From positions 124,001 to 188,000 of the forward strand of contig CAUYUJ010000037.1 of NCBI GenBank assembly GCA_963575745.1: DNA of 64,000 nt. The letters run 5' to 3'. Made by a program: the position numbers and the translations under genes. Source of the DNA: Prorocentrum cordatum (lineage: Eukaryota). The stretch's first letter is position 1. Every line of letters begins with the position of its first letter. The notes beneath the pieces were generated by a model, which was given only the letters and a program-made list of their open reading frames with translations, was not told the DNA's origin and searched no databases. Below are positions 1 through 58,120 of this stretch, one piece after another.

Positions 1-1565
1 TCAGCAAAATCCTCGCCGGGACCCCCCCCATTTCCCCTGACACAGCCAGCCTCCTGAGGCCTCTGGGCATGGGTTTTTCGTAGGTTTGACGGCTCCCCCA
101 CTCAGCAAAATCCTCGCCGGGACCCCCCCCCACCCCCTGACACAGCCAGCCTCCTGAGGCCTTCTGGGCACGGTTTTCGCAGGAGGTTTGAAGGCCCCCC
201 AACTCAGCAAAATCTCGCGGGACCCCAATCCCCCTGACACCTCCAGCCTCCTTGAGGTCGGGGGCATGGACTTTTCATAGTTTGAAAGGCCCCCCCCACT
301 CGCACAATCCTCGCCAGGACACCCCCCACCCTCCGAACAGCAGGGGCTCCCGCCTTGGGCCGGCCCACCCCAATTAGCAAAAATCTTCGCCGGGGACATC
401 CCCCACCCCCCCTGACACAGCCAGCCCCCTGAGGCCTCTGGGCATGGGTTTTTCCTAAGTTTGAAGGCCCCACCACTCGACAAAATCCTCGCCGGGACCC
501 TCCCCACCCCCCACACCCCCTAACACAGCCCACCTCCTGAGGACTGTGGGCATGGGTTTTTCGTAGGTTCGAAGGAACCCCCACTCAGCAAAATCTTCGC
601 CGGGACCCCCCCCATCCCCCCCTGACACAGCCAGCCTCCTGAAACCTCTGGGCATGGGTTTTTCACAGGTTCGAACGCCCCCCCATTCAACAAAATCCTC
701 GCCGGGACCCCCCCCACCCCCCCTGACACAGCCAGCCTCCTGAGGCCTTTGGGCATGGGTTTTTCGTAAGTTTGAAGGCTCCCCCACTCAGCAAAATCCT
801 CGCTGGGAGTCCCCCCACCCCCCTGACACAGCCAGCCTCCTGAGGCCTTTGGGCATGGGTTTCTCGTAGGTTTGATGGCCCCCCCACTCAGCAAAATCCT
901 CGCCGGGACACACTCCACCCCCCCTGACACAGCCAGCCTCCTGAGGCCTCTGGGCAGAGTTTTTCGTAGTTCGAAGGCCCCCTACTCAGAATCTTCGCCG
1001 GGACCTCCCCGCCCCCTGACACATCCAGACTCCTGAAGCCTCTGATTATGGCTTTTCGGTAGGTTGGAAGTGGCCCCCCCCCCACTCAGCAAAATCACGC
1101 GGGGACCCCCCCCCACCCCCATGACAAAGCCAGCCCCCTGAGGCCTATGGGCATTCAGTGTTCGTAGGTTTGAAGGCCCCCCCACTCAACAAAATCCTCG
1201 CCGGGACCCCCCCCCACCCCCTCTGACACAGCCAGTCTTCTGAGAATTCTGGGAATGGTTTTTTTCGTAGGTTTGAAGGAACCCCCACTCAGCAAAATCC
1301 TCGCCGAGACCTCTCCCACCCCCCCTGACACAGCCAGCGCCCTGAAGCCTCTGGGCATGGATTTTTCGTAGGTTTGAAAGCCTTCCCACTCAGCACAAGC
1401 CTCGCCGGGACTTCCCACCCCCCCTGACACAGCCAGCCTCCTGAGGCCTCTGGGCATGGGTTTTCGTATGTTTGAAGGCCCCCCCACTCAGCAAAATCCT
1501 CGCCAGGACCTCCCCACCCCTCCTGACACAGCCAGCCTCCTGAGGCCTCTGGGCATGGTTTTTTT
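1..1565. repeat. ~100-bp GC-rich tandem satellite, left part (continues beyond window start)
   Basis: Unit ~ACTCAGCAAAATCCTCGCCGGGACCCCCCCCACCCCCCTGACACAGCCAGCCTCCTGAGGCCTCTGGGCATGGGTTTTTCGTAGGTTTGAAGGCCCCCC recurs with ~100-bp spacing (1, 102, 204, ... 788, 888). Confidence 0.95.
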
Positions 1566-2059
1566 GTGGGCGCCCAACGCCATCGAAAGCGCGCGCGCTC
1601 GCTTGTGCTGCGCTGTGCGCGGGCACAAATTTCGCGCCCGCGCCTGGCCCGCGCGCGGGCGGGCAAGCTGGGCGCGCGGGCCGCCTCCCGCTTTCCTGCG
1701 CCGCGCGGCGCGCGGCCCCACGAGAAGGGCCCGCGCGCGCGAGGCGGGGGGGCCTCAGCATGTGCCTCGCGGCGCGCGGCCCCACGCGAAGGGCCTGCGC
1801 GCGCGAGGGGGGGGGGAGCGACGGCACGTGCCTCGCGGCGCGCGGCCCCGCGCGAAGGGCCCGCGCGCGAGGGGGGTGCGTCGTCACGCGCGTGGCTAGT
1901 CTGCTCTTCTGCTCGCTTTGCGTCGAACGCCCCGTGCAGGCGCGCCGCGGGGATCGCGTCGGGGCGGCTCGCGGCGCGGCTCGGGGTCGTGCGATGTGCA
2001 GGCATTGGTGCTTGCATCTCGCAGGCATGTGCGCCTGCGTCCCGCCGTGGCGGACGGCG
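1566..2059 (+). repeat. Split direct repeat A1 (494 bp)
   Basis: Near-identical to 3580-4076 (a handful of substitutions and homopolymer indels). Contains three internal ~65-bp CGCGGCGCGCGGCCCC...GAAGGGCC repeats. Confidence 0.95.
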
Positions 2060-3279
2060 GCGGAGTAGCTATCGCACTCGCGTCAAGCCTTCAGGTTCGC
2101 GGACTTCGCGCCGCGCCCCTGCTGCATCGCGCCCGCGTGCGCGCGCAGGAGGCAGCACAAGTCCAGAGGCCGGCTCCGGCGCGGGAGCAGGCCGCCGGGG
2201 GCATTGCCGTTGACGCGCTCCTCGAGACAAGGATTGCGAAGGCGCAGGGGGCCCGCGCGCCACAGTGCGGCGGGGGCCCGCGCGCGGAGCTCCGTTATCT
2301 TCGCCGGCGGCTTGACAGCGAGGAAGGCCCAGTGAGCGTCGCTGAGTGGCTGTCTTCGGCGCGCGCAGCGGCCCTCCTGGGCGCATGCCCGCGCTCCATC
2401 GCCTATTTCAAGAGCGGCGTGGCAGCATGGATCGCGTTCGCGCGCGAGGCTCTTGCGCTGCACGGGCGCGAGCTGCCGCCGTCTGCCGACGGGTTGCTCG
2501 CGTGGTCGCTGCTGTTTCGCTCCGACCAGACCTTTTCCAATTATGTCTCTCACGTCAAGCTGGCTTGTCAGGTTTGCGATCTCCCTGTAGACGTTTTTCG
2601 TGACACGCCCCTTCGCCGCGCCAAATGCGCGATTCGCAAGCGCGGCGCTTTCCTGCCCAGGGCGCCCCTATTCATCAGGGAGGACGCAGTTTGCGCGCTG
2701 CTAAATCTGGCAAAAGAGCGGCAAGAGTCCGCCGTTTTCGCGCAGCTCTTTCTTGTCACGTACGTGTTTCTCTTGCGACTTCCCTCGGAGGCCCTGGGCA
2801 TTTCGTTCGACGGCGTCGCCTTTCGTCAGGGCGCAGGGGCTTCCCTCATTCTGTGCGACGGCCTCCTGCAGCTCAAATTGGCGCGCCGCAAGAACAAGCA
2901 ATTCGGGTCCGTGCTGCAGCGAGCGTGCTGGTGCGCGCGCTGCACCAAGACGTGCCCGGTCCACGCGCTCGGCGCATGGTTCGCGGACCTGCCCGTGGGC
3001 ACCAGGCCGTTCGCGGACATTAGCGCGGCCAGCTCGCTGAGCACGCTGCGCTTTCTCCTCGGTCAGCTCGGCGTCAAAGACGCGGCGCTCTATCGCACGC
3101 ACGACCTGCGGCGCGGGCACGCACTGGACCTCCAGCAGAGGGGAGGCACCTTGCGCGAGCTCCTTCAAGCGGGCGAATGGTCCTCGCCCGCGTTCCTGTC
3201 GTACCTCGATTTGACGCAACTCGAACTCGGCGCCGTGGTCGAGGCGCATCTAGCTGAGTCCGAGGACGAACTTGCCTAG
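1918..3279 (+). CDS. Tyrosine recombinase (phage-integrase fold, DIRS/Ngaro type); true start uncertain, no in-frame ATG
   Basis: Catalytic motifs in order: FLLRLPSE (R), RRKN (K), CPVH, HDLRRG (HxxR), GEWSS (W), FLSYL (Y). The upstream segment (YFKSGVAAWIAF...FSNYVSHVK) resembles a core-binding domain. No internal stops. Confidence 0.92.
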   Translation: MRRTPRAGAPRGSRRGGSRRGSGSCDVQALVLASRRHVRLRPAVADGGGVAIALASSLQVRGLRAAPLLHRARVRAQEAAQVQRPAPAREQAAGGIAVDALLETRIAKAQGARAPQCGGGPRAELRYLRRRLDSEEGPVSVAEWLSSARAAALLGACPRSIAYFKSGVAAWIAFAREALALHGRELPPSADGLLAWSLLFRSDQTFSNYVSHVKLACQVCDLPVDVFRDTPLRRAKCAIRKRGAFLPRAPLFIREDAVCALLNLAKERQESAVFAQLFLVTYVFLLRLPSEALGISFDGVAFRQGAGASLILCDGLLQLKLARRKNKQFGSVLQRACWCARCTKTCPVHALGAWFADLPVGTRPFADISAASSLSTLRFLLGQLGVKDAALYRTHDLRRGHALDLQQRGGTLRELLQAGEWSSPAFLSYLDLTQLELGAVVEAHLAESEDELA

Positions 3280-3433
3280 GCAATGGCGACCCAGGCGTCG
3301 CGCGACGCCCTCGCGCGCACGCCTCCGCCGCTGCGTGTCACAACACCGCGGCGCCGCCGCACGCAACACCCGTTTCGCAAGGGGTGCGCGTGCCGCGCGC
3401 GTCGCCGCTGCGCGGTGCACCAGCATGCATCGG

Positions 3434-3579
3434 CTGGGGGTATTTGCATCCCTGGCGCCCCGCGCGTCGGCTCAGACTGGCACCGCCAGGCTGGACGGCG
3501 CGGGGGGTGCCGCACCCCTTGTCAAGTGGGTGCGGGCACCCTCGGGTGCGGGAGGCTTCTGGCGCAGCTGAAATTTGTG
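3434..3579 (+). repeat. Split direct repeat B1 (146 bp)
   Basis: CTGGGGGTATTTGCATCC...GCTGAAATTTGTG; matches 4105-4250 with one visible substitution. Confidence 0.95.
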
Positions 3580-4076
3580 GTGGGCGCCCAACGCCATCGA
3601 AAGCGCGCGCGCTCGCTTGTGCTGCGTTGTGCGCGGGCACAAATTTCGCGCCCGCGCCTGGCCCGCGCGCGGGCGGGCAAGCTGGGCGCGCGGGCCGCCT
3701 CCCGCTTTCCTGCGCCGCGCGGCGCGCGGCCCCACGAGAAGGGCCCGCGCGCGCGAGGCGGGGGGGCGTCAGCATGTGCCTCGCGGCGCGCGGCCCCACG
3801 CGAAGGGCCTGCGCGCGCGAGGGGGGGGGGGGAGCGACGGCACGTGCCTCGCGGCGCGCGGCCCCGCGCGAAGGGCCCGCGCGCGAGGGGGGGTGCGTCG
3901 TCACGCGCGTGGCTAGTCTGCTCTTCTGCTCGCTTTGCGTCGAACGCCCCGTGCAGGCGCGCCGCGGGGATCGCGTCGGGGCGGTTCGCGGCGCGCCTCG
4001 GGGTCGTGCGATGTGCAGGCATTGGTGCTTGCATCTCGCAGGCATGTGCGCTTGCGTCCCGCCGTGGCGGACGGCG
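3580..4076 (+). repeat. Split direct repeat A2
   Basis: Starts GTGGGCGCCCAACGCCATCG immediately after B1; copy of 1566-2059. Confidence 0.95.
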
Positions 4077-4104
4077 CGCGCGCTTTCGCCCCACCCTCCC
4101 GCTC

Positions 4105-4250
4105 CTGGGGGTACTTGCATCCCTGGCGCCCCGCGCGTCGGCTCAGACTGGCACCGCCAGGCTGGACGGCGCGGGGGGTGCCGCACCCCTTGTCAAGTGG
4201 GTGCGGGCACCCTCGGGTGCGGGAGGCTTCTGGCGCAGCTGAAATTTGTG
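4105..4250 (+). repeat. Split direct repeat B2 (element 3' end)
   Basis: Copy of 3434-3579 ending GAAATTTGTG, followed directly by satellite CGTTGGTTTGAAGG. Confidence 0.95.
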
Positions 4251-7200
4251 CGTTGGTTTGAAGGCTCCCCACTCGGCAAAATCCTCGCCGCGACCTCCCC
4301 ACCCCCCCTGACACAGCCAGCCTCCTGAGGCCTCTGGCCATTGGTTTTTCGCAGGTTCGAAGGCCCCCCCACTCAGCAAAATCCTCGCCGGGGCCCACCC
4401 CACCTTCCCTGACACAGCCAGCCTCCTGAGGCATCTGGTCATATGTTTTTCGTAGGTTTGAAGGGCCCCCCACTCAGCAAAATCCTCACCGGGACCCCCC
4501 CACACCCCCCCTGACACAGCCAGCCTCCTGAGGCCTTTGGGCATCTGTTTTTCGTAGGTTCGAAGGCGCCCCCACTCAGCAAAATCCTCGCCGGAACCCT
4601 CCCCACCCCCCCTGACACAGCCAGCCTCCTGAGGCCTATGGGCATGGGTTTTTCCTAAGTTTGAAGGCCCCCCCACTCAGCAAAATGCTCGCCAGGACCT
4701 CCCCCACCCACCCTGACAGAGCCAGCCTCCTGAGGCCTCTGGCCTTGAGTTCTTCCTAAGTTCGAAGGCCCCCCACTCAGCAAAATCCTCGCCGGGACCC
4801 CCCCCATTTCCCCTGACACAGCCAGCCTCCTGAGGCCTCTGGGCATGGGTTTTTCGTAGGTTTGACGGCTCCCCCACTCAGCAAAATCCTCGCCGGGACC
4901 CCCCCCCACCCCACTGACACAGCCAGTCCTGCTAGGCCCTGGGCACGGGTTTTTCGTAAGTTAGGCCCACAATTAGCAGAATCCTAGCCGCGGACCCCCA
5001 CCCATACGGACGAAAACATAGCCGAGCTCCGTCTAAAAAACGCACAAGAGGCACATCGGACGAACAATGGGTTTCACGCACAAAGTAACAAAACAGCTGA
5101 ATAGAGCCCCCACATCAAGCACAAAGAAACCCTCACAGACTGAAGACACCTCCTAACCAAGAACCTTTCCCGGGGACACAGAAAACAAGCACTAGACACG
5201 ACGGCAGGGGGTTTCGCCAGTTCGACATAGTCACACCACCAACCCAACAAAATCCCTGCACGGACCCAACACCCCCCCCAACACCCTCACCATAGGACAC
5301 GAACGCCGCAGCTAGTGAGGCTGCGGGCACAGAAGCCACCTGGAACTTATATTCCCTGATTAAATACGACATGTTGACGGCCCCCCAACTCAGCAAAAAA
5401 TCACATGCCAGGGAAACCCCACCTCACACGTCCCCCACCCCACACCCACCACAGACACATGCCAGCCTCCCTGCACATGAACCTGGGCAGTGATTTTTTC
5501 GCACGTTTTATAGAAGAAGTCGACCCACTCAGCAAAATCCTCGCCGGGACCCCCCACCCCCCCTGACACACAGCCAGCATCCTGAGGCCTCGGGCACGGG
5601 TTTTCGTAAGTTCTGAAGGCCCCCCCACTCAGCGAAATCCTCGCGGGGACATAACCCCCACACCCCCCCTGACACAGCCAGCCCCCTGAGGCCTCTGGGC
5701 ATGGGTTTTTCCTAAGTTTGAAGGCCCCACCACTCGACAAAATCCTCGCCGGGACCCTCCCCACCCCCCACACCCCCTAACACAGCCCACCTCCTGAGGA
5801 CTGTGGGCATGGGTTTTTCGTAGGTTCGAAGGAACCCCCACTCAGCAAAATCTTCGCCGGGACCCCCCCCATCCCCCCCTGACACAGCCAGCCTCCTGAA
5901 ACCTCTGGGCATGGGTTGGGTTTCGCTTACGTTGTGAAGGGCCACTCCAACTCAGCAAAATCCTAGCGGGGACCCACCCCACCCTCACTGACACAACACC
6001 CCCTGAGGCCTACTGGGCATTGGATTTTCGCGGGTCGAAGGCCCCCCCCAACTCAGCAAATCTTCGCAGGACCCCCCCACAGCCCCTGACACAGCCATAG
6101 TCCAGCCACTGAGGGGCAGCCTCCCCCCCATACTCAGCCGAGAAATCCGCTCGGGACCCCCCCGCCGCCCCCCCGACACAGCCAGCCTCATGAGGCCACT
6201 CACCTTGTGCACTCAGCAAAATCCTCACCAGGACCCCCCCACCCCCGACACAGCCAGCCTCCCGAGGCCTATGGGTTTTCGTTCGGTTCGAGGCCACCAC
6301 TCAGCAAAATCCTCGCCGGCCCCCCCCCCCACCTCCCTGACGCACCCAGCCTCCTGAGGCCTCTGGGCATGGTTTTTTTCGTAGGTTTGAAGGCCCCCCC
6401 ACTCAGCAAAATCATCGCCGGGACCCCGCCCACCCCCCTTGACGCAGCCAGCCTTCTGAGGCCTCTGTGCATGAGTTTTTCGTGGGTTTACAAGCCCCCC
6501 CACGCAGCAAAATCATCGCCGGGACCCCCCCCCACCCCTTCTGACACAGCCAGCCTCCTGAGGCCTCTGGGCATAAGTTTTTCGTAAGTTTGAAGGCCCT
6601 CCCACTCAGCAAAATCCTCGCCGGGACCCCCCCACACCCCCCCAGAGCCGGCCTCCTGCGGCCTCTGGGCATGGGTTTGTCGTAGATTTGAACGCGCCCC
6701 CACTCAACAAAATCTTCGCCGGGACCCGACCGACCCCCCTGACACAGCCAGCCTCCCGAGGCCTGTGGGCATTGGTTTTTTGTAAGTTTGAAGGCCCCCC
6801 CACTCAGCAAAATCCTCGTCGGGGCCCCCCCCCGACTCCCCTGACACAGCCAGCCTCCTGAGGCCTCTGGGCATGGGTTTAGGTTGAAGGCCCCCAATCA
6901 CAAAATGTTCGCCGGGACCCGCCCCCCACCCCCCCTGACACAGCCAGCCTCCTGAGGCCTCTGGGCATGGGTTTTCGTAGGCTTGAAGCCCCCCACTCAG
7001 CAAAATCCTCGCCGAGATTGCCCCGACCCCCCGAGACACAGCCAGCCTACTGAGGCTTCGGGGCATGAATTCGTTTTTCGCAGGTTTGAAAGCCCCCCCC
7101 ACTCAGCAAAATCCTCGCCGGGACCACCCGACCCCCCGACACAGCCAGCCTCCTGAGGCCTCTGGGCAAAATTTCATGGGTTTGAAAGACCCTTCCCCTC

Positions 7201-7895
7201 CGCAAAATCCTCGCTGGGACCCCCCCCACCACCCCCCCTGACCCAGCCAGCCTCCCGAGGCCTCTGGGCATATGTTTTTCGTAAGTTTGAAAGGCCCCCC
7301 AACGGAGCAAAATCTTCGCCGGGACCCCCCCGACCCCTCCTGACACAGGCAGTCTCCTGAGGCTTCTGGGCCGAAGTTTTCCTAGGTTTGAAAGACCCCC
7401 CACTCAGCAAAATCCTCGCGGGAACTCCCCCGACTCCCCCTGACATATCCATCCTCCTGAGGCCTCTCAGCATAAGTTGTTCGTGGATGGTCGACCCCCG
7501 CTGAGCCAAATCCTCGACGGAGCCTCCCCGACTCCCCCTGACACAGCCAGCCTCCTGAGACCTCTGGGCACTCGGTTTCCGCAGGTTTGCACAACCTCTT
7601 AACTCAGCAAAATCCTCGCCGGACCCCCTCGACCCCCCCTGACACAGCCAGCCTGCTGAGGCCTCTGGGCACGGGCTTTCCGTAGGTTTGAAGGACTCCC
7701 CACTCAGCGCCAGCAACGAGCCAGCAACGAGGCCAGCAAAATCCTCACCGGGACCCACCCCACCCCCCTGACACACCCAGCCTCCACAGGCCTCTGGGCA
7801 TAAGTTTATCGTAGCACCCCGGAGACTTCAGAGGTTTGAAGGACCCCCCGCTTAACAAAATCCTCACCAGGAGCCCCCCGCCACCCCTGACACGC
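4251..7895. repeat. ~100-bp GC-rich tandem satellite, right part
   Basis: Same unit as 1-1565. Strongly garbled between ~4925 and 5520 and more diverged toward 7.9 kb. Confidence 0.93.
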
Positions 7896-7939: not shown

Positions 7940-10900
7940 TGCTTTCCGCCTCCACGCAGCCCTCATCTCCCCCAGTATTCCGCTGTACCTTTTGTTTGGT
8001 TTTTCGCGCCACGACGTCATGCGACAAGTCTGCCACGCGCTTCCGGCCGCGCTCCTGGTCTGCGTCGCACTCATTACAACGCTGCGTCCCGTTCGGTCTC
8101 TGCGTCGTTCGCTTTGACAACCACGCGCTAAACCTCGCGGTTTCGAAGGAGTCCTTACACTGCACGCACTTCCAATACCCGAGCTGGTTGTTGGCCCCTT
8201 TCACGCACTCGTCGCACTTGCGATGCTTGCTGGCGACCTTCGACCACATCTTCCCAGAGAATGCGGCTTGAGGCTTTTCCGCGCCGCAAGCCGTGCACGA
8301 CTTCATCTCTTTCCTCGTATATTTCCGTGCGCCTCTGTGCTTCTCGCCCCTTTCGTCTGCGGCCCGCGCGACGCACTCAATGCATACTCGCGGTCGCGGC
8401 CTCTCTTCCCACAGAGACCCAGAATAGAAGTCGCGCGGTTTCTCCGCGCGGCACGTCGAACACTTCTTCCGTTCCGCCTCTCCCTGGCGCCGCTTCTGCT
8501 CCCTGTTCTCCGCTCTCTTGCATTTGTCGCACACGCGCTCCGGGTCATCGACGTCGCGCTTCGCGAAGTGGGTGGCGACCTTGCTCTCCTTGCAGCGACC
8601 GCATAAGAGGTGCCTCTTTCACTCTCTGCGCACATTCCTCCTCCACCTCGGCTGTTCCCCGATTGTTCCCACTGATACTGCGCGAACGCCTCCTCGTATT
8701 TTCGAATTTCGCACACGCGGCAACTCCCTCTCGGGGCAGTTCACGCAACGCCGCGTTGTCAACTTCGACGGGTGGTGCTGCGAGGCGGGGAACGCCCCCT
8801 GGCATTTCCATAGACAACACTCCATGCATTGCCACGGGGTGCCCATCCTCTTCTTGTCTTCCAGGCACGCGCTGCACACGCGAAGCCCGTCTGCACGACT
8901 CCACTGCCCTACCGTCGGGTAATTACATGTTCTTGTACTTCGTGCATCCGCAGACCGCGCACCTGCCAGACGGCATGAACCCATTCTCTATCGCCTCCCA
9001 GTCCAACACTTCCCCGCGCAGGGTGCGCAACAGCAATCCCGGCCCCCTCCGCTCGCCCTTCTTCTGATACGGCGCTATGTCGAAAGGACGAAAGATGAGC
9101 ATGTCCTCCCGGCGTTGTACCCGCGTCAGTGCCACGTAGCTCGAGAAAGGTGACGCGCCCCCGCCAATGCGCAGGTCCACGGTGACACCTTGCTTAAAAG
9201 TTTGCACCTGCGCCGTATGGGCCGTCACCCCGAAGGCCGGAGCCAGCGGGAACTGCCGTCTTTTCACCTTCAGCCGCGGGCGCGGACGACCTTTGTCCAC
9301 GAACCACTCCTTCTTTTGCGGAACCGCCGGGTACAAGCCGGGCGTCCTTAATCCCTCGATCGTCCACTTGCACGGCTTCCGACCGCCCTTTCCGTCGAAC
9401 AACACGAAAATCACTTTCGAGGTTTTTCTTCAGAGTGGTCTCACCCCCGCGCGTGACCCGATCGTGCTCTCCGTCCCCGTCGCAAACCCAAGACTGAACG
9501 CGGCCGACGCGACCGCGCAGGAGGTTCTTGTCCTCGCTGCGATCGACGTGATCAGTCAGAGCGACTGGCACGCCTTCTGCGATGGACAAGAAGCCGTACA
9601 GGTCTCCGCTCTCCTTGTCGTGTCGTTGGAGCCATGCCATCTTCTGCTGCGCCAGATCTGGTCGCTCGCGGAGCGTCTCCGGCGTTGGCGTATCCCGCAC
9701 AGGGACGTACACCATCGGCTTCCCGTGCCTGCGCGCGTACTGCGACGCTCGGAGCTTGTTGGCCTCATATTTGACGTTGTTCGGAAACACTCCCGGCGCG
9801 ATGAAGGACTTCTCCGACTGCAGACGCGGATCGCCCGGGCCATCCTCCACCAGACGGCGCCGCGAACGTTCCCCTCTGCACACCTGACACTCCTGTTGGC
9901 GGATCTCCTTCGACGTTACCTTGCGTCTTCGACGTTGACCCGCTGCACCCGCCGCTTCATCCTTTGCGCCATCGCACAACTCCTGGCATGCCCGATTCCG
10001 GCAACCCACGTCTCCGTGCAGCCAGCTCCCCGTAACGACGGCGGTGTCCCTGCCGCGCAAGAACGCGCGCGCGTTCGCCGACAGCGCCCCTGTACGGAAT
10101 TATTCCTGCACCTCCTTCAGCCAGGCGTCGTCGCACCGCTCGCACTCCACCAGCTCGGTCACGCCCTGCACCCCGCACTCGGGTCCACCCCACAGTAGAG
10201 ATTGGCCATGGAGCACAGGTGGCAGGGATGTGTACTTGCGCGCCGCCGATATGCGCTCGGTGGGGACGTCCGCCAGGAAGCCACCGTCGGGGGGGGGGCA
10301 GTCGCCAGAAGTCACCACTCAGCACGACGTTCAAACCGCCGAACGGGCGCGGCACGCCTCCGTCTCCGCGCTTCGTTGTGCCCACATCCCGGATCACCCC
10401 TCGCAGTTTCGCGTCTACTTCTGCCAAGAGTCTGGCGCTAACCATGCTGATCTCGTCGATAAACAGCCACCTCCACTGGAGCACGCGCTTGGCAGTCTCG
10501 CACTGCAGCTTCACATCCTCCCCCTGGTCGGCTCCCCGCTTGATAGCTGGTATGCCGCACGCATGGTGGATGGTGTCCCCTCCAAACAGCTGCGCCATGA
10601 CGGACGGCTTGCAGGGCGGCGATTTGGAAGTTCACCCCAATCGTCCACTTCATCAATCCTTCGAACAGTTCGTAGCGAAGAATGCGCAAGACGTGTGATT
10701 TGCCCGTCCCAGGGACCCCGTGCATACACCATTGCAGGGGTTCCCCCATGGCCGCTTCACCCCTTCCCTCGCCATCGATCTCCTGCATTACCCGACACGC
10801 CACCTTCTTCACCATCTTGAACTGCTTCGCGTTCACTACGCGCCGCCCCGTGTCCTTGTTCACCCGGAACTCGAGGTCCGCGAGCCACCTGGCCACGTCA

Positions 10901-13760
10901 TCCGAAGTGGCGGCCGCGCCCGCGACAACGACCCCTCCAGCGGCGTCCGCCATCCTGTCGGCCATGGAACACTCTTTGTTCCGAGACTTCCGCGCTTCCC
11001 GGAAAACCAAGTCCAAGTCACAAGCCTGATCTGCCGGCCAAGCGGCTGCTAACTCGCTGAGCGGCGTTTCGCCGTCCCGGAGCCCCCACGCCTGCTGCGC
11101 CACAGCCATGCCCCATTTCGAGTTGTCGTAATGAGATGTGCCTCCCGCCCCGTCGTCTTGACCCTCCTCCTCGCTGGCGCTGTCTCCGTCCCCGTCTTTC
11201 CGTCGCTTCCCCCCCACGCGCGACTTCAGCGCCTCGTCGCGCTGATCGAAGCCCACGTCAAATTCCATGTCGCTCACGTCTTCGTCGCTCCGTTCCTCCG
11301 CTTCGCCAGCATCCCGTGGCCGGACGCGGTACACACCCAGGAGGTTCCCCACGTACCGCGCGGCCTCCTTCGCCCGCACTCCGCCGCCCAGCCACTCAAC
11401 AATGGCTGCGTCCCACGACGGTGCTTCGCCACGCAGGCCCCCTGCGAACACTACGTATTGGTCCGCCACGTCGGGCCTCAGGGTCCACGGGTGGAAATAC
11501 GTCATGACGACACGCGCCGACCGCTCCGCTTCCCTGGACGCCCGCGCGGCACGGGCGCTCCGATAAAAAGTAGGTGCCATGGGCCTCCTATTCCGCATGA
11601 GAACCCACGTGTGGCGAAGGCGGGCGCACCCTTCGGTGTCCGGATAAGGAACCCAATCGTCACCTCCGTCTTCCTTCACCGTGTAGTCCACCCCGGGCAC
11701 CAAGTCCTCCTCCAGACTCGCGTTCCCCCGCCCCTGACGCAGTTTGTCCTTGCCCCACTGCGTCAAGACTGCACGATGGCGCGGATTCTCCGCATCTGCG
11801 ATTCTCGTCGGGAAGGACAGTAACACCGGCGTCCAGTACGTTGCGAACTCATACGGAGATAGGTCCCACAGGCCGGAACTCTTCGGACGCAGCCCATACA
11901 ACATGCCCACATTTCGAACAGTCACCTTTCGGCGTCCCTTCTGCCGCATGTCAACTTCGGCAAACTGAGCTTTGCGACCCCCAGACGCGCGGTCTGCCAA
12001 GCGCTCGACCAAGTCCACGTACTCGCGCCCGTACAACGCTGCCGTCTCACAGGACTTCATTGCCTCCGCCGCAGTCACGTCGCCCTCTCGCGCGAAGGCC
12101 CTCAGGCTTGCACATCCGACTTGGTCGCGCACGATGCCCTTGCCATCAGCGTCGCTCATGATTCGGTTGGCTGCCCTCTTACCGACACGATTCACGCTCT
12201 CGCCCTGCAGCTGCCTGCCGAGCTTCTCGACTCCTTTGCAACACTCTTTCACCTCGTGGAAAGCCATGGGCTGCCGCTTCGTACAGTAGTCGCAGGCGTA
12301 TCCTGCCTGCGCGTCCTGCGCCATCTGCGCGACCCTGATGGTCGCTGCGTCGTCGAGCTTCTTGTCGCATGCTTTCTGGCACGTGAACAGACCTTCGCGA
12401 TGGGAAATCGATACGGCAGCTGCACGTCCGAATTCAATCGCTGCGCGGACAACATGCACGGATGCGTGCCATTGAGGCTCGCGTGATTCATCGGCCCGCG
12501 TAGGCTGCCAGTCCGATATCGACGCCCTGCCCTCGGCATGTCCAACGCCACCGCCTGCCCCGGACACACGACGATGGCGCGGTCAATGATCTGCGCCGTG
12601 CGGGGGAAATCCGCCTTACACAACTTCGGGTTGTCCTTCCGACAGCACGCTGGCAGAGGTACTCGCTCCCCAGTCTCTTCATTTTTCAGATGGACGTGGC
12701 TATGCTTCCTCTCTTGCAAGTACTGTACGTCCGCGTCCAGATATTCTTTCTTCCATGCCACAGCGTCGTCCTGAGCCTCTGTCGTCGATGCTTTTGCATG
12801 GAGAGCGCGGGGTTTGAAACGCGGGCCTGCCAAGGAGCCCGCCCTCGTCTTTGAACTCCGGCCAAGACATCTCCGCCTCCCCCAGCCTCCGATTGATTTC
12901 CTCCGCCGACACCTGCTGCGAATAAACCTGCCGACAGACGCGACTCTTGTGCTCCAAATACCCCAGCACAGTCTTCTTGCCCCGGTCCTGCACGTCGTCA
13001 CAGACGATTTCGAACACCTCCTCGAGCGGCGTGTGCTGGTGCAGGCACTGTACGAATACCTGGCAGTGCCCGTGCAAAGATCCCGTAGATCTCTGCGCTT
13101 CTATGGGCACGCAGTAAGCATCCACGCGCCCGAACGCGCCCCCGCCTGGCATGGCGTCGCTTCCGAACAGGTCCTGGCACGGGACCCCCCCTCGGCGTGA
13201 TTGCAACGCGGGCAGTTCGGGCAAGTCCGCAGCCCGAACAGGTGCCGGAGCGTCGCGTCCACAAGGATGCGGAAGCCGTCAACGCTGGCCATGGGGTCCC
13301 GCGCGAGGATTTGTCTACGCTCGGCCCACGTCGGCACCCCAGCCTGTCCTGCATCCATCGGAAGATCCAGGCGCGCCTCGTCTACGTCGGGGGCTACGCG
13401 CGGCCACTCCCGATCCCCCGCCAGCCGCGACTGCACTTCATTATCAGCTGCCGCGTGCACAGGGTCTTGCCGTCGCGTGCGCGACAGGCGGACCATGAGC
13501 AGATTGTGCCCTTCGTCGGGCGAGAAAGTTACGAAGATTGGGGCGCCATACCGGACTCGCAGAGGGTTCGTCTCGAACCTCATCACACGGCAAGATTCCT
13601 GTGTACCTGGGAGGCGCCGCGACGTGTGCGCAGTGTGAGTGAGAAGCTTGTGGGCGGTTTTCCCCAGACTTGGCACATCCCCATCGATCCCTGCCGCACC
13701 AGGAGCCCCCCACTGCCACACCCCACGATGCCAACCAAAAACAACTTGAAATACCCCCAA
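7940..13760 (-). pseudogene. Helitron/Helentron-type RepHel (HUH Rep + Pif1-family helicase), multiply frameshifted
   Basis: Collinear motifs across overlapping minus-strand ORFs. Rep: PIFVTFSP, EAQRSTGSLHGH (HUH), HSHVH...CKADFP, NSDVQL, YACDYCTK. Helicase: HGVPGTGKS, FIDEISMVS, PFGGLNVVLSGDFWRLPP, RRQFPLAPAFGVTAHTAQVQT, YVALTRV. Confidence 0.93.
8040..8980 (-). other. Cys-rich zinc-binding repeat region at the RepHel C-terminus
   Basis: Repeated CxxC...K...[FY]S...W...CxxC modules: CSTCRAEKPRDFYSGSLW..CIEC, CTACGAEKPQAAFSGKMW..CDEC, CVQCKDSFETARFSAW..CNEC, CMECCLWKCQGAF..CVNC. Confidence 0.7.
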
Positions 13761-19286: not shown

Positions 19287-21101
19287 TTAGCCTGGCGAAA
19301 AACCAACCATATGCAATTGTGGGTACCGCATCTAAGGATACCGTCCTCCGTGGAGCTCCACATGGGGCCACGAAACACTGTACTGGATGGGAGAGACGTA
19401 CGCGAACTGCGCCGATGGGACTTTCGGTGGAGCTCACTATAGGGCCACGAAATGCTGTACTGGGTGGGGAGACGCATGCGAACTGCGCCACTGAGACCTT
19501 CGGTGGCGTTCTCTATGGGGCCACGGAACATTGTACTGGGCGGGGGAGACGCATACGAACTGCGCCACAAGGGCCTTCGGTGGACCACCCACTGGGGCCA
19601 CGAAACGCTGTACTGAGCGGGGGAGGCGCATGCGAACTGCGCCACTGGGACCTTAGGTGGAGGTCCCTCTGGGGCGGGGAAACGCTGTGCTGGGCAACGG
19701 GAAGGCATGCGAACTGCGCCACTGGTCACTTCGGTGAATTCCTCCTGGGGCCACGAAAGGCTGCACTGGGCGGGGGAGACGTATGCGAACTGCGCCAGTG
19801 GGACCTTCGGTGGAGCTCCTTCTGGGGCCACGAAACGCTGTGCTGGGTAGGGGAGACGAATGCGAACTGCACCACTGGGACCTTCGGTGGAGCTCCCTAT
19901 GAGACCATTAAACGCTGTGCTGGGTGACGAAGACGCATGCGCACTGCGCCACGGGGACCTTCGGTGGAGCTGCCTATGGGGCCACGAAACGCTGTCCTGG
20001 GTGGGGGAGACGAATGCGAACTGCGCCACTGGGACCTTTGGTGGAGCTCCCTACGGGGCCACGGAACGCTGTGCTGGGCGGGGGAGACGCACGCGAACTG
20101 CGCCACTGGGACCGTCGGTGGAGCTACCTGCGGGGCCACGAGACGCTGTGCTGGGCGGGGGAGACGTATGCGCACTGCGACTCTGGAACCTTCGGCGGTC
20201 CCTATTGAGCCAGGAAGCGCTGCACTGGGCGGGGGAGACGCATGCGAACTGCGCCACTGGGACCTTCGGTGGAGCTTCCTACGGGGCCACAAAACGCTTT
20301 GCTGGGCGGGGGAGACGCATGCGAACTGAACAACTGGGACCTTCGGTGGATCTCCCTCTGGGGCCACGAAAGGCCGCACTGACCGGGGGAGACGCATGCG
20401 AACTGCGCCCCCAGGACCTTCGGTGGAGCTTCCTACGGGGCCACGAAACGCTTGGCTGGGTGGGGGAGACGCATGCGAACTGAGCCACCCACGAAACGCT
20501 GTCCTCTGTGGGGGAGACGCATGCGGACTGCGCCAGCGGAGCTCGCTACTGGGCCACGGAACGCTGCGCTGGGCGGGGGAGACGCATGCGGACTGCGCTA
20601 CCGGGACCTTCGGTGGACCTCCCTATGGGGCCACGAAACCCCTACCAGGTGCAGGAGACGCGTGCGAACTGCGCCTGTGGGACCTTCGGTGGCGCTCCCT
20701 ATGGGGCCAGGAAACGCTGTACTGGGCGGGGGGACGCATGCGAACTGCGCCACTGGGACCTTCGACGGAGCTCCCTATCGGGCCACTAAACGATTGACTG
20801 GGTCGGGAAGACGCATGCGGTTCTGCGCCTCTGGGACCTTCGGTGGAGCTCCCTAGGGAGCCACGAAACGCTGCGCTGGATGGGGAGACGCATGCGAACT
20901 ACGCCACTGGGACCTTCGGTGGAGCTCTCTACGGGGCCACGAAAGTGCGCTGGGTAGGGGAGACGCATGCGAACTGCGCCACTAGGACCTTCGGTGGACC
21001 TCCCTGCAGAGCCACGAAACGCTGTATTGGGTGGGCGAGACCAAGGAGGGGCGCTGCCTCTTCGAAACGCGGACCCAACGCCAGAAGATGATTGGGAAAA
21101 A
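19287..21101. mobile_element. Non-autonomous element (CCCAACCAT/ATGGTTGGG family), long copy carrying a ~78-bp satellite
   Basis: Same two ends as 18691-19029 (TTAGCCTGGCGAAAAACCAACCATATGCAA; GGGGCGCTGCCTCTTCGAAACGCGGACCCAACGCCAGAAGATGATTGGGAAAAA). Confidence 0.6.
19345..21040. repeat. ~78-bp tandem satellite (~20 units)
   Basis: Unit GGGGCCACGAAACGCTGTGCTGGGCGGGGGAGACGCATGCGAACTGCGCCACTGGGACCTTCGGTGGAGCTCCCTAT. Confidence 0.95.
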
Positions 21102-47807: not shown

Positions 47808-48497
47808 TCGACCACGACCACGGCCACGGCCACGGCCACGGCCACGGCCACGGCCACGGCCACGCCACGGCCACGGCCACGACCACGACCACGGCCACGG
47901 CCACGACCACGGCCACGGAAACAGCCACGGCACGGCGACGGCGACGGCGACGGCCACGGCGACGGCCACGGCGACGGCGACGGCGACGGCGACGGCCACG
48001 GCCACGAAAACGGCCACGAAAACGGCCACGAAAAAAGGCCACGGCCACGGCCACGGCCACGGCCACGGCCACGGCCACGGCCACGGCCACGGCATGGCCA
48101 CGGCCACGACACGGCCACGCCCACGGCCACGCCCACGGCCACGCCCACGGCCACGGCCACGGCCACGGCCACGGCCACGGCCACAGCCACGGCCACGGCC
48201 ACGACCACGACCACGGCCACGGCCACGGCCACGGCCACGGCCAAAGCCACGGCCACGGCCACGGCCATTGCCACGGACACGGCCACCGCCGGCTACCGCC
48301 ACGGCCACCGCCACGGCCACGGCCACGGCCACGCCCACAGCCACCCCGGCGGCCACGGCCACGGCATCGCCACGGCCACGGCCAGGGCCACGGCCACGGC
48401 CGTCACGGCCACCGCCACGGCCACGACCACGACCACGGCCACGGCCCCGGCCCCGGCCACGGCCACGACCACGGCCACGACCCCTAGAGCCACGGCC
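47808..48497 (+). repeat. (GGCCAC)n hexamer minisatellite
   Basis: Directly visible; related copy at 49031-49390. Confidence 0.95.
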
Positions 48498-49030
48498 AGC
48501 CGGCAGAGAATTCGAAAATCACGTTTCGCAACTCAGCCCTAGCGTGCCTCGCGAAGTTCTCTTGATTCCTATCCATAATAACTCTCTAGCTCATCTGCAG
48601 CTCGAGTTAAGTGAAGGAACTCATTTATTTCGAAAAAAAACGATCGAATGCTAATATCTGTGCGGATATAGTTGAACCAGTAGACTGAATTCAGGCTCTA
48701 GAACTGACAAACGTGCCTAATTATTCAAAATCGGTTTCTGTAAGTATCAGCTCTTTAGCTTTCTGAAATCTCGAGTGATGTTTGAAAACCGTAAAGGCGG
48801 ACTCGAACACACAATCGGTTCCAGCAAGGGTTTTGTAGTAAATTTCACTGGCAGACACGTCATTACGCACTACAGATTGGAAAAATCTGTTTTTGACACA
48901 AATTTTCAAATTTTGCCCAAAAATTGAAAAACCTACCCCAAGTCGTCACATTCTCTCTTCTGGTCGGGTCGCCCAACTAGCTCCACCCCGCGCCGGAATT
49001 CCTCTAGCTCATCGATGCCGAAGAGCTCTC

Positions 49031-49085
49031 CACGACCACGACTACGGCCACGGCCACGACCACGGCCACGGAAACAGCCACGGCA

Positions 49086-49119
<34 letters not shown>

Positions 49120-49390
49120 CACGGCGACGGCGACGGCGACGGCGACGGCCACGGCCACGAAAACGGTCACGGCCACGGCCACGGCCACGTCCACGAAACG
49201 GCCACGCCCACGGGCACGCCCACGGCCACGGCCACGGCCACGGCCACGGCCACGGCCACGGCCACGGCCACGGCCACGGCCGGCCACGACCACGACCACG
49301 GCCACGGCCACGGCCACGGCCACGGCCACGGCCAAAGCCACGGCTACTGCCACGGCCACGACGGACACGGCCACCGCCAGCTACCGGCAC
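49031..49390 (+). repeat. (GGCCAC)n hexamer minisatellite, second copy
   Basis: Shares rare variants with 47808-48497 (GGAAACAGCCAC, GGCCAAAGCCAC, GGACACGGCCACCGCC). Confidence 0.95.
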
Positions 49391-52450: not shown

Positions 52451-53651
52451 CTCTGGGTTTTGGACGGCAGCTACAGAGCTGATACGCACAGAAAACGATG
52501 CAGAATAATCAGGCGCGTTGGTCTGTTGCATCCAGAGTTCTGAACTCGGTCTGCTACTAGGTCACCGAAACTGTTCTTATCGTTCGAGTCATCTTGAGAG
52601 GTGCTGCCGGTTTTCGCACGTAACTCGGGCTGTAGGACAGATACAGAGCTGATACACGCAGAGAATGATTCGAAATTATCATGCGCGTTCGTCTGTTACA
52701 TCTAGAGGTCCCAACTGGGCTTGCTACTCGGGCTAGGTCCGCAAAACTATTCGTATTCTTCGAGTCATCTTGACAGATGTTGTCCATTTTCTGTATTGAA
52801 CTCGGGCTGTAGGAGAGCTACAGAGCTGGTGCGTACAGAAACCGATCGAGAATCAGGAGCGTTCGTCTGTTGCATCGAGAGGTCTGAACTCGGTCTGCTA
52901 CCCGAGCTAGGTTCACAAAATTATTCGTATTCGACCGATATTTTCTTCCAAATGATGGTGAATTGCTTAGCTGAACTCGAGCGGCCGAAAAATCAGAAGG
53001 AAATCATGAGGCGTGAAGTTCTCCCTAATGGTATTTTCTACACGCTGCAGATGAGATAGAACTGTTGAGCACAGCGATGGGATATCACTAGACGCCGGAG
53101 ATCAGTCTGCTAGCAGCCCGGGCTGAAAAACTATTCGTTCTCTGCTAATACTTGGGACATCATGCATGGTCAGGAAGCTCTACGAGTCCCCCGGCGGTAA
53201 GAAAGGTTGCCGGTTTACCGCCGGCGCCCAGTTGGACGCTACCAAGTGAGGTAAGACGCATTCGGGTGCAGAATGGAACTAGTAATTCGTAGAGCTTTGC
53301 TAAGCTAGTTGCTGGAAGCTTAAGAGTACCTCGCAGAGCTCTTTGGCATCGATGAGCTAGAGGAATTCCGGTGCGGGGTGGAGCTAGTTGGTCGACCCGA
53401 CCAGAAAGGACAATGTTCCCCGAGAGCTCTCTGAAAGCTACAGGGTTTAAGATACGAGGCCGCACGGTGGTGGTGCAAGCCAGCAGCCCATCTTCGCCGC
53501 TCCAGAATCCCCGCAGGGCTTGTTCGCCCCGGCACCCTGTCTGGGGTCGCTTCAGGCACTGTTCCACGCGAGCCTGCGCGTGGTGGGAGAATACCTAGTG
53601 GCGCGTGAGAAGCGCGTCAGGGGGGCTTCCCAGCGCCTGTCAGGAAAAGTG

Positions 53652-54160
53652 CACCTCGTAGAGCTCTTCGGCAAGATGAGCTACGAGGAATTCGGGCGCA
53701 GGATGGAGCTAGTTGGCCGACCCGACCTTAAGAGACAATGTGATAACTTGGGGTCGGTTTTTTTTGAATCTTTGTGCAAAATTCGAAAATTCGTTTTAAG
53801 AACTGGTGATTTTCCCACGTGTAGTGGGTGATGCCGCGTCTGCCAGTAAAATTCTCAGGTCCGTAGATGGAATATGACTATCAAAACACTTGAGGGAACA
53901 GACTGTGTTCCGAGTCATCCTGACACGCGTTGGCGGTTTTCGGGCGCGTTCTTTCCTCGCATCGAGAGGTCTGAACTCGGTCTGGTACTCGAGCTAGGTC
54001 CACGAAACGAAGATGCAAAATGGTAAAATACTTATTTTTCGAACTTGTTTCTTCACGCTTGAGAAAGCTTTTTTCGTGCGTTCCGAGCAGCGCCGCGCGA
54101 AACAGAGCTCTACGAGGCTCCCGGCGGTTACCTTTCTAACGGTTTACCGCCGGATCCCAG
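53652..54160 (+). mobile_element. Subfamily 1 element
   Basis: CACCTCGTAGAGCTC ... GAGCTCTACGAGGCTC + hairpin + ATCCCAG. Confidence 0.65.
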
Positions 54161-56621: not shown

Positions 56622-57011
56622 TACCTCGTCGAGCTCTTCGTTATCAATGAGCTAGAAGAATTCTGGCGCGGGGTGGAGCTAGTTGGTCGATCCGGCCAGA
56701 AAGAAGATGTGACAACTTGGGGTCGGTTTTGCTAAGATTTGAAGGATATTTAACAATTCATTTTCAAAAACAAGATTTTTCGCACCTGTAGACGACTGTG
56801 AGGACCTCTGCGTCTTAATATGAGCTCTGCAGCTGGACTTTTACTATCAAAGCACTTGGCGAAACCAACTTTATGTCGACATGAACATAATGAATGTTCA
56901 TTTTTTTGAGAAATTATCGAGAAGCTCTGCCCTTCGACTCTCAGCACTATCACGCGTGGAAGGAGCTCTACGCCGGCGGTGACCAGGTTGACGGTTCACC
57001 GCCGGCGCCAG
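56622..57011 (+). mobile_element. Subfamily 1 element
   Basis: TACCTCGTCGAGCTC ... GAGCTCTACG + hairpin + CGCCAG. Confidence 0.65.
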
Positions 57012-58120
57012 TTGCTGGAAGCTTAAGAGTAATTCCGGGGCGCTGGAGAGCTAGTTGACAAGAAAAATATCGACGGACCGTCGGTTGAAACTTTTGTTCT
57101 CGAAACTCAAAAATTCGTTCGAGCTCTAGTATTTTTTTCTGACCACATTCGATCTTATTCCCGCTCGCCATCTTGATCTTAGCCCGATCGGGTATCTTTT
57201 ACTGCTAAAAAGCGTTGCGGCGGGATTGGCCGTTTCGAGTCATCTTGACACGCGTTAACCGTTCTTTGTACTTAACCCGAGTTATAGAGGAGCTACAGAG
57301 CAGATGCTCGCAGAAACCGATTCATAATTAGCAGGCGCGTTCGTCAGTTGCATATAGAGGTCTGAGATCGGTCTGCTGCTCGAGCTAGGTCCACGAAACC
57401 GAGCTAAGTCGCGAAACTATTCGTATTCTACGATCTTCCTTGGCGGATACTGTCAATTTTCGGTGCTGTAGGAGAGCTACAGTTCTAATACGCATAAGTA
57501 ACTATTCAGAATCATCGCGCGCGTCGGTCAGCTGCATCCAGAGGTCTGATTTTGGTCTGCTACTCGAGCTAGGTATGGGAAACTATTCGCGTTATTCGAG
57601 TGATCGTGACAGGTTCTGTAGGTTTTGAATACTTAACTCGGGCTGTAGAAACAATTTAGAGCTGGCACCCATAGACACTAATTCAGAACAGGTGCGCTTG
57701 TCTGTTCCATCGAGAGGTCTGAACTAGGTCTGCTACTAGCCAGGTCCGCAAAAACATTCGAGTTATATGAACAGGGGCTGTTGGTGTTTTGTACGTAACT
57801 CGAGCTTCAGCACAGCTACAGAGCTTGTACACACATATAATTGATTCAGAATCACAGGCGCGTTCAGCTGAAGCATCTAGAGCTCTGCTAGGTCACAAAC
57901 CGATTCGTATTGGACCAATTTTTCTCCGAAGCGACGGTGGATTTCTTTACACAACTTGAGAGCTCTTTGGCACATAAATGAAATGGAAATCATAAGGCGC
58001 CGCTTGGCTGGATCTGTTCAGCACAACAATGGGAAAGGAATTATCAGCGGCAATAGTATATAGACGCCTGAGATCAGTCTGCTATCAGCGCTCGGGCTAA
58101 AGAAACATTCGTGCCCTGCA

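Follow-up and report, generated by a model that had tools for sequence, protein, structure and literature searches.

A split-direct-repeat element from Prorocentrum cordatum, very likely an internally deleted copy of a Ngaro-like tyrosine recombinase retrotransposon

The region 1566-4250 of the analyzed DNA from Prorocentrum cordatum (64,000 nt of contig CAUYUJ010000037.1, hereafter called the window) is very likely a non-autonomous derivative, shortened by an internal deletion, of a tyrosine recombinase (YR) retrotransposon that has split direct repeats and a Ngaro-type layout. The label "Ngaro-like" is assigned by structure (gag, RT/RNase H and YR genes, no methyltransferase) and not by phylogeny. 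Intact relatives are ~6.4-9.2 kb long, with the order A1 - ORF1 (gag-like) - ORF2 (RT/RNase H) - ORF3 (YR) - B1 - A2 - C-rich spacer - B2, and the window copy would result from the loss of some 4.7 kb in one event, which extended from the 3' edge of A1 into the YR gene as far as codon 69: the deletion would have taken ORF1, ORF2, the YR start codon and the N-terminal domain, and spared all non-coding repeats and the catalytic region of the YR. A minimal split-repeat element that encodes only a YR would have meant a new route of mobility; the evidence points to a deleted derivative of a Ngaro-type element that carries RT, i.e. to ordinary transposon debris and not to a new kind of element.

Split direct repeats and the satellite insertion site

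The order A1 - ORF - B1 - A2 - 28 bp - B2, with its coordinates, was reproduced from the original prediction, as was the near identity of the repeats. All parts lie on the forward strand: the 5' split direct repeat A1 (1566..2059, 494 bp) is followed by the ORF, by the unique 3' non-coding sequence that separates the YR stop codon from B1 (3280..3433) and aligns to the sequence downstream of the YR stop in the metagenome locus L001 (see below), by B1 (3434..3579, 146 bp, with the 3' end ...AAATTTGTG), A2 (3580..4076, 497 bp), a C-rich spacer (4077..4104, 28 bp, ...CCCCACCCTCCCGCTC), and finally B2 (4105..4250, 146 bp), which forms the right end of the element. An alignment of A1 with A2 has 5 mismatches and, within runs of G, 3 gap columns, and B1 and B2 are identical at 145 of 146 positions. 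A1 contains a tandem repeat of 64-66 bp (2.7 copies, 1700-1876). Long inverted repeats are absent from the element, which has only short GC-rich ones (at most 61 nt at 72%).

The trinucleotide GTG is found at both termini of the element, and the B1|A2 junction reads GTG|GTG, that is, two element ends joined. In the intact relatives, transcription and reverse transcription would lead to circular or joined-end DNA with a B|A junction like B1|A2, which the YR would insert without target duplication, in this case into a satellite monomer. Read contigs showed no joint that differs from the internal B1|A2 junction, and the joint of a circle would look alike.

The element is inserted within a single monomer of a 101-bp satellite. 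The array of the left flank (1..1565) has its last monomer broken after ...GGCATGGTTTTTTT, and the satellite of the right flank (4251..4962) continues from CGTTGGTTTGAAGG... back in phase; a target-site duplication was not found at the element's flanks. Contigs from the sequencing runs X2 and X3 carry unbroken monomers at the insertion point (loose ends at 1556-1564).

The recombinase gene and the deletion junction

An in-frame ATG is missing from the open frame at 1900-3279, the first ~50 residues of which merely translate A1. True YR homology runs only from codon 70 of the 472-aa relatives onwards, with the start and 69 codons absent, which leaves a 5'-truncated YR ORF at 2068..3279 on the forward strand (codons 70-472 and the stop codon, 403 residues). 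The close relatives P0001-P0003 are 472-481 aa long, exhibit 93-98% identity over the 328-aa query, and possess the N-terminus (the ATG and about 70 residues) that is missing from the window ORF. The catalytic region is well preserved: among 25 relatives, the columns R306, K344, R417 and W440 are invariant, and H414 and Y448 nearly so. P0001 (472 aa), which is 98% identical to the window YR, was taken to stand in for it in the analysis of the fold, and its predicted model (pLDDT 81) reported Cre/Tre as the best Foldseek matches (E-value 3e-8) over both domains, which places the family, with its catalytic residues, among the tyrosine recombinases with a Cre-like two-domain fold. The profile comparison with Cre (E-value 0.006) pairs the H-x-x-R, W and Y of the family with H289/R292, W315 and Y324 of Cre. 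The Pfam Phage_integrase profile matched the window YR with an E-value of 0.14, below the cut-off; in general, the RT and YR assignments in this work rest on motifs and predicted folds, with Pfam scores under the curated cut-offs. The window and L001 YR genes differ at 66 of 1212 nucleotides and 22 of 404 amino acids, with a dN/dS of 0.25, which indicates that the YR lineage has been under protein-level constraint for most of the divergence.

The YR had been described as uninterrupted, with the catalytic R, K, HxxR, W and Y all present; the residues are indeed there, but the gene is not intact, as it lacks an ATG and codons 1-69. After these losses, the element can no longer be credited with an integrase of its own. 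RT cannot be made from the window copy and a working recombinase is very probably not to be expected either, hence the copy could move only with help in trans.

The deletion junction (2060..2066, forward strand) consists of 7 bases with no counterpart in A2 or in the L001 YR gene; in comparison to L001, ORF1, ORF2 (RT/RNase H) and YR codons 1-69 are missing at this point. The alignment of L001 to window positions 2067-3739 (93.1% nucleotide identity) begins abruptly at 2067, which corresponds to L001 position 5425 and to YR codon 70, seven bases past the end of the A1/A2 identity. Contigs from X1 and X2 likewise match the window from 2067 on; upstream of it they contain intact coding sequence for the YR N-terminus (the loose end encodes ...DGGQKRCIRE) and not A1. 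When the N-terminal 110 residues of the window frame were used as a protein query, P0001 was the sole match, aligned past the junction.

RT-bearing relatives

L001, a metagenome locus with 93% nucleotide identity, is the nearest full relative. Upstream of its YR gene it carries a gag-like ORF1 (501 aa) followed by an RT/RNase H ORF2 (726 aa), the latter with the motifs KADIDSAFRR and RFVDDLF. The Pfam RVT_1 match of this ORF2 is sub-threshold (E-value 0.003), as it is in all six ORF2 proteins that were scanned, namely the one of L001 itself (P0108) and those of five relatives. The predicted model of ORF2 (pLDDT 84) matches the RT chains of CaMV, HERV-K, MMLV, Ty3 and HIV-1, with a top E-value of 5e-11 and matches that span up to ~640 alignment columns; a profile built from the ORF2 alignment found nothing beyond chance matches in the PDB. 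The 3' non-coding region together with B1 (3280-3579) is identical to L001 at 272 of 300 positions. The same N-terminal domain of 72 residues is common to ORF1 and the YR of L001.

Every one of the 21 related metagenome loci with at least 1500 nt of upstream sequence has an RT ORF ahead of the YR gene; for loci with at least 1000 nt the figure is 25 of 27, and for those with at least 600 nt it is 33 of 43. L001 and these 21 loci speak against an RT-less system of the kind originally proposed. The proposed link to Ngaro/PAT-type split-direct-repeat retrotransposons was right. The order gag, RT/RNase H, YR was found in L001, L011, L012, L025 and L052. No Dam/methyltransferase domain was detected in the three ORFs of L001 (E-value up to 0.1) or in the six ORF2 proteins (E-value up to 0.01), and the 193 nt between the end of ORF2 and the YR ATG in L001 leave no room for one.

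As to the repeats of the relatives, L012 exhibits the plan B1-A2-spacer-B2, and L028, L071 and L080 exhibit B1...B2 pairs; overlapping ends in L003, L011 and L078 define units of 6444, 7123 and 9248 bp. A1 is not recognizable in L001: its 5' 900 bp score 57 against the A repeat of the window (shuffle mean 58), and a tandem repeat of 96/192 bp, unrelated to A, occupies its first ~700 bp. For this very family, the complete A1-gag-pol-YR layout thus had to be assembled from L001 and more distant relatives with 40-50% YR identity.

The window itself contains no remnant of gag or RT of the L001 type, in agreement with the prediction that neither is present (tblastn with L001 ORF1 and ORF2, nothing at E-values up to 1). 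The window has 65 listed ORFs of at least 200 aa; no credible matches came from Pfam for the 38 of them that were scanned, or from Rfam for the whole window. The proteins of the family are unnamed in all sources searched, with the exception of a distant Prorocentrum cordatum fragment (36% identity). The ESM Atlas returned only unnamed clusters, which we regard as leads rather than evidence.

Affiliation and alternative explanations

Among the described systems, the closest counterpart is the Ngaro of Cafeteria burkhardae, for which the relevant sections of Hackl et al. (2021, PMC8547959) describe the organization A1-[ORFs]-B1A2B2, a GC-rich sequence, a length of about 6-7 kb, and the three genes ORF1 (gag-like), ORF2 (RT/RNase H) and ORF3 (YR with HxxR and the catalytic Y). 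The window element shares with Ngaro elements the split repeats A1...B1 A2 B2, the internal ones being downstream of the YR; the succession of gag-like, RT/RNase H and YR genes is found in the relatives and not in the window copy, where ORF1, ORF2 and the N-terminal part of the YR are missing, and a methyltransferase-like domain is absent from the L001 ORFs and the six ORF2 proteins. The family proteins differ in that they score below the Pfam cut-offs. VIPER of Trypanosoma cruzi likewise has A1...B1 A2 B2 repeats, and its relative SIRE consists of A2, an exclusive region of ~30 bp and B2, a parallel to the 28-bp spacer found here, as far as the pertinent parts of Ribeiro et al. (2019, PMC6681497) go. 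However, a figure legend of that paper gives the VIPER order as Gag-like, YR, RT/RH, whereas here the YR comes last, and VIPER is known only from kinetoplastids; neither the host nor the gene order applies to our case. SIRE is presented in the same parts as a truncated non-autonomous derivative, its origin and mobility being treated as open, and as highly repeated and devoid of coding sequence, in contrast to the 1.2 kb of YR coding sequence and the single known copy here. PAT-like and DIRS1-like elements are also YR retrotransposons, the former with split direct repeats; in the portions of Szitenberg et al. (2014, PMC4157794) and Muszewska et al. (2013, PMC3783388) that deal with them, the DIRS group is characterized by a methyltransferase-like domain (Pfam Dam), and DIRS1-like elements by inverted terminal repeats and an internal complementary region. 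Neither a methyltransferase nor long inverted repeats, whether terminal or as an internal complementary region, were found here. A literature search for Ngaro or DIRS elements in dinoflagellates or haptophytes yielded nothing specific.

Several other readings of the locus were considered. An element that moves at the DNA level like Cryptons, i.e. by excision and integration of a DNA circle without reverse transcription, could be suspected from the presence of a YR-type ORF alone in this copy and from the 3-bp GTG direct repeat at its ends; according to the passages of Kojima and Jurka (2011, PMC3212892) on the subject, Cryptons code for the YR only, have short terminal direct repeats and give rise to non-autonomous derivatives. 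The same passages describe them as devoid of TIRs, of long direct repeats and of RT-bearing relatives, whereas our element has split repeats of 494 bp and 146 bp, the YR genes most similar to its own are preceded by gag and RT/RNase H ORFs, and the YR is thus not the sole enzyme in all copies. Moreover, the YR gene of the window is truncated and without a start codon, and integration of a simple circle would leave no extra A2-spacer-B2, so that this reading finds no support and we consider it exceedingly improbable. Hardly more credible is an assembly artefact, in which A1 would have been misjoined to the middle of the YR gene of a full-length locus. It could be favored by one short GC-rich string, GACGGCGGC, that A and the YR gene have in common near the junction, and by the multi-copy nature of the element in the sequencing runs examined. 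Yet assemblers work with words much longer than the roughly 9 bases in common, and elsewhere the locus keeps its colinearity, with the satellite in phase to its left and right. The bin 1970-2063 is without cover in all 4 runs and no contig bridges A1 and the YR, but an uncovered part proves nothing.

Mobilization in trans by full-length relatives is an idea put forward for SIRE/VIPER and for MITE-like derivatives. Applied to our case, it would mean that the element belongs to a propagating non-autonomous lineage without RT, copied and inserted by the RT and YR of its full-length relatives. All the cis repeats (A1, B1|A2, spacer, B2) are indeed kept, and A1/A2 and B1/B2 are 98-99% identical; of the RNA library X18, one short contig falls within the YR gene and another covers the 3' region with B1, although they are not specific for this copy and DNA carry-over is possible; and RT ORFs cut short beside the YR occur in two further loci of 80 (L048 and L079). 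In the literature, the A2 - ~30 bp - B2 structure derived from VIPER in SIRE (PMC6681497, in part) and the deletion variants found at several loci of Cafeteria, where isolated AB repeats also occur and type 2b without ORF1 had spread (PMC8547959, in part), provide precedents. On the other hand, 1.2 kb of useless coding sequence is atypical of non-autonomous derivatives, and a second copy of the A1/YR junction was found neither in the window, which has one, nor in viral_contigs and genome_contigs (0 matches to the 31-base junction, in collections with hardly any eukaryotes), nor among 4587 candidate proteins (no chimeric A1/YR N-terminus, in a database that also lacks the window's own ORF). Such a lineage is unsupported, if not disproved, and we regard it as unlikely; we lean towards a one-off or low-copy deletion. 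The open frame of 403 codons and the 98-99% identity of the repeats are compatible with a young copy, and also with the deleted form having transposed. A small trans-mobilized lineage with all cis repeats and the conserved C-rich spacer, and perhaps with a truncated recombinase expressed via a non-AUG start or a spliced leader in A1, appears quite unlikely; if it existed, the N-terminally truncated recombinase could help or compete with the YR of full-length elements.

The C-rich tract is found at the same place, between A2 and B2, in L012, L028, L071 and L080, and the B terminus TTGTG is kept among the elements (ATTTGTG in the window, L001 and L012), both in spite of recombinases that are only about 45% identical. 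From the sequences, this conservation points to the spacer and the terminus as candidate cis sites for replication or recombination, which is of note as the mechanism of such elements is poorly known. The possibility that A1 once ended in the 28-bp spacer and lost it was rejected, as the spacer is absent after A1 in L011 and L012. Position 4093 in the spacer is crossed by contigs of X1 (n=5), X2 (n=4) and X3 (n=8). Two X1 contigs part from the window sequence after the first 13 bases of the spacer. The stretch is present in runs from 14 studies, and the relatives form a large, diverse and wholly unnamed marine-metagenome clade of YR retrotransposons, of which 202 were confirmed in one scan.

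Anatomy of the element and its recombinase

The element occupies positions 1566-4250 as a block of 72% G+C (58% for the whole window), and pairwise alignment and self-BLAST bore out the coordinates and repeat anatomy of the original prediction. The A repeats (A1, 1566-2059; A2, 3580-4076) differ by 5 mismatches and 3 gap columns, with the gaps located within G runs, the B repeats (B1, 3434-3579; B2, 4105-4250) are identical at 145 of 146 positions, and a unique 28-bp spacer (4077-4104) separates A2 from B2. GTG is found at both termini, and the B1|A2 junction reads GTG|GTG, i.e. both element ends are joined there. The insertion splits a monomer of the 101-bp satellite at the window start between a T run and CGT(A/T)GG; the satellite continues in phase past the element, with no target duplication. 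In the replication model of Poulter and Goodwin, the transcript is said to span A1 to B2, the ends are reportedly restored using B1|A2 as a template, and the tyrosine recombinase (YR) is said to insert without target duplication. Only one copy of the element was detected in the window by self-BLAST. Within each A repeat lies a G+C-rich tandem repeat with a unit of 64-68 bp, present in ~2.7 copies (1700-1876 and 3714-3899); in one contig from sequencing run X1, 67 bases at 3820-3888 are absent, which corresponds to one unit fewer, so the tandem copy number differs between copies of the element.

The YR is encoded in an open frame (1900-3279) that lacks an in-frame ATG and matches Pfam Phage_integrase only below the threshold (E-value 0.14). 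Searching 5.8 billion proteins with the residues encoded from 2293 onward gave 107 relatives, all unnamed metagenome proteins with the exception of one partial protein from Prorocentrum cordatum (36% identity). The closest relatives, P0001 (98% identity), P0002 (93%) and P0003 (93%), comprise 472-481 aa and possess an N-terminus of ~70 residues (MAGHGASMRVFLER...DGGQKRCIRE) that is missing from the window YR, whose homology to them starts at ...AIALA...; the frame before this point is A1 read-through. The catalytic set (R in LLRLPSE, K in RRKNK, HDLRRGH, GEW and Y in FLxYLD) falls in columns that are invariant, or nearly so, in an alignment of 25 sequences, the family profile aligned with Cre over the HxxR-W-Y segment (E-value 0.006), and both domains of the AlphaFold2 model of P0001 (pLDDT 81) matched Cre/Tre (Foldseek E-value 3e-8). 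On these grounds the family is a genuine tyrosine recombinase. The catalytic residues noted originally are thus confirmed, while the supposedly intact ORF is 5'-truncated and without a start codon. Its 403 remaining codons show 66 nt and 22 aa differences from the nearest full relative, L001 (dN/dS 0.25), which reflects selection on the active lineage, predating the creation of the window copy.

A probable reverse transcriptase-bearing parent family

The YR of L001, a JGI metagenome locus of 7098 bp, has 99% identity to P0001. The locus matches window positions 2067-3739 with 93.1% nucleotide identity, and the match begins at L001 5425 (YR codon 70), seven bases past the end of the A1/A2 identity (2059). 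Two ORFs lie upstream of the L001 YR: ORF1, which is gag-like (about 818/825-2330), and ORF2 (pol, RT/RNase H; 726 aa, 2846-5026), the latter only 193 nt from the YR ATG. ORF2 exhibits the motifs KADIDSAFRR and RFVDDLF; its match to RVT_1 is sub-threshold (E-value 0.003), as in all 6 ORF2 proteins scanned (P0108, identical to L001 ORF2, and five relatives), and its model (pLDDT 84, pTM 0.79) matches the reverse transcriptases of CaMV, HERV-K, MMLV, Ty3 and HIV-1, from E-value 5e-11 and with alignments of up to ~640 columns. A methyltransferase (MT; Dam) was matched neither in the L001 ORFs nor in the 6 ORF2 proteins. B1 and the start of A2 lie downstream, and the contig stops within A2; no recognisable A1 was found in L001, which opens with ~700 bp of an unrelated tandem repeat. 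Over its first ~72 residues, the L001 YR ORF is 61% identical to the ORF1 N-terminus (5219-5440 vs 827-1042), the ORF1 stretch lying in a different frame from the long ORF1; tblastn did not find this similarity in the other loci tried whose YR N-terminus could be extracted, e.g. L003, L011 and L012. Such a common N-terminal domain could link the YR to the Gag-like protein.

A single scan across JGI metagenome contigs yielded 202 confirmed relatives; 80 loci were retained. According to tblastn with the three L001 proteins, pol and/or gag lie beside the YR in 34 of the 80. Pol was found upstream of the YR in 21/21 loci with at least 1500 nt upstream, in 25/27 with at least 1000 nt (exceptions: L054 and L077) and in 33/43 with at least 600 nt; the rest do not extend far enough to display it. 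In the window no gag/pol remnant of the L001 family was detected at E-value <=1, in agreement with the predicted absence of gag and RT. The element DNA or close relatives were found in 20 listed runs from 14 studies, mostly marine metagenomes.

Logan contigs from runs X1 and X2 agree with the window starting at 2067, and upstream of this position they carry 30 letters encoding DGGQKRCIRE, i.e. the intact YR N-terminus. A deletion in a gag-RT/RH-YR element, with its ends at the 3' edge of A1 and at YR codon 69 (~4.7 kb, as estimated from L001), would yield the window copy; the breakpoint lies within 2060-2066, and a short GC-rich string, GACGGCGGC, is common to both sides near it. The window element is thus very probably a deleted, non-autonomous copy of a Ngaro-type retrotransposon of a marine eukaryote, of which the parent family is undescribed, yet structurally ordinary. 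The minimal YR-only element proposed originally is unsupported, given the truncated YR and the pol upstream in all 21 relatives with at least 1500 nt upstream. It is possible that the deleted form constitutes a small non-autonomous lineage: Ngaro deletion variants that spread are on record (Cafeteria type 2b, PMC8547959), and RT ORFs are cut short beside the YR in L048 (RT piece 31-351, YR 911-1921) and L079 (1-297 and 1059-2035), which retain RT residues 90-196 and 246-342, respectively, 560-760 nt before the YR and represent either additional variants with internal deletions or chimeric assemblies. Internal deletions therefore appear to recur in this group, which makes a one-off deletion unremarkable and such a lineage possible; a second A1/YR junction was not found in the window, in viral and genome contigs (hardly any of them eukaryotic) or by the protein search.

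Split direct repeats, the order gag-RT/RH-YR and the lack of an MT domain identify the family as Ngaro-like under the structural criteria of Szitenberg et al. 2014 (PMC4157794), Muszewska et al. 2013 (PMC3783388) and Hackl et al. 2021 (PMC8547959). PAT and DIRS1-like elements (MT domain typical of both, ITR plus ICR of DIRS1) and VIPER (different ORF order and host) were rejected, as were Cryptons, which according to Kojima and Jurka 2011 (PMC3212892) encode only a YR and lack long direct repeats.

Repeat plan and candidate cis sites

Self-comparison covered 14 loci out of the 80: the 10 longest plus four more. L012 shows B1 (102 bp), A2 (133 bp), a ~25-nt spacer (7096-7120) and B2, followed by a simple-repeat flank, and B1...B2 pairs are present in L028, L071 and L080. 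L011, a near-twin of L012, has identical contig ends (unit 7123 bp); across them the order is B, A, ORF1, and A is not followed by a spacer. Contig-end overlaps also occur in L003 (unit 6444 bp) and L078 (9248 bp); the overlaps of L003, L011 and L078 comprise 2733 bp at 99.9% and 123 and 141 bp at 100%, respectively. They are expected when an assembler walks from B1-A2 back into A1; circular or tandem copies would produce them too.

In all five readable elements, B2 is preceded by a C-rich stretch (...CCCACC[C/T]... up to ...CCTCC), located in the spacers of the window element and L012 and in the last 30-60 nt ahead of B2 in L028, L071 and L080; it is kept even beside an AT-rich A2. B terminates with ATTTGTG in three elements (window, L001, L012) and with AAATTGTG in L080. 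Since both are retained despite YR identity of only 40-50% among these elements, the C-rich spacer and the B terminus are likely conserved cis sites, as far as sequence comparison indicates. A parallel is found in VIPER: SIRE is described by Ribeiro et al. 2019 (PMC6681497) as A2 and B2 with an exclusive region of ~30 bp between them, resembling the 28-bp spacer arrangement here. Two X1 contigs track A2 13 bases into the spacer (4077-4089) and then pass into unrelated G+C-rich sequence; A may continue differently in some copies.

Surroundings of the element

The window consists mostly of tandem repeats (101-bp, 77-bp and ~176-bp satellites and CCACGG hexamer arrays; tracts at 1-1565, 4251-4962, 5525-6097, 6210-7708, 19350-21041, 47812-49379 and 52468-63231), and the flanking satellite is also present in runs X2 and X3. 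Pfam gave nothing credible for 38 of the 65 listed window ORFs of at least 200 aa, and Rfam nothing in the whole window. The longest stop-free frame (714 codons, 10441-12582, minus strand) matched neither Pfam nor the L001 gag, pol or YR, and high G+C may partly account for its length.
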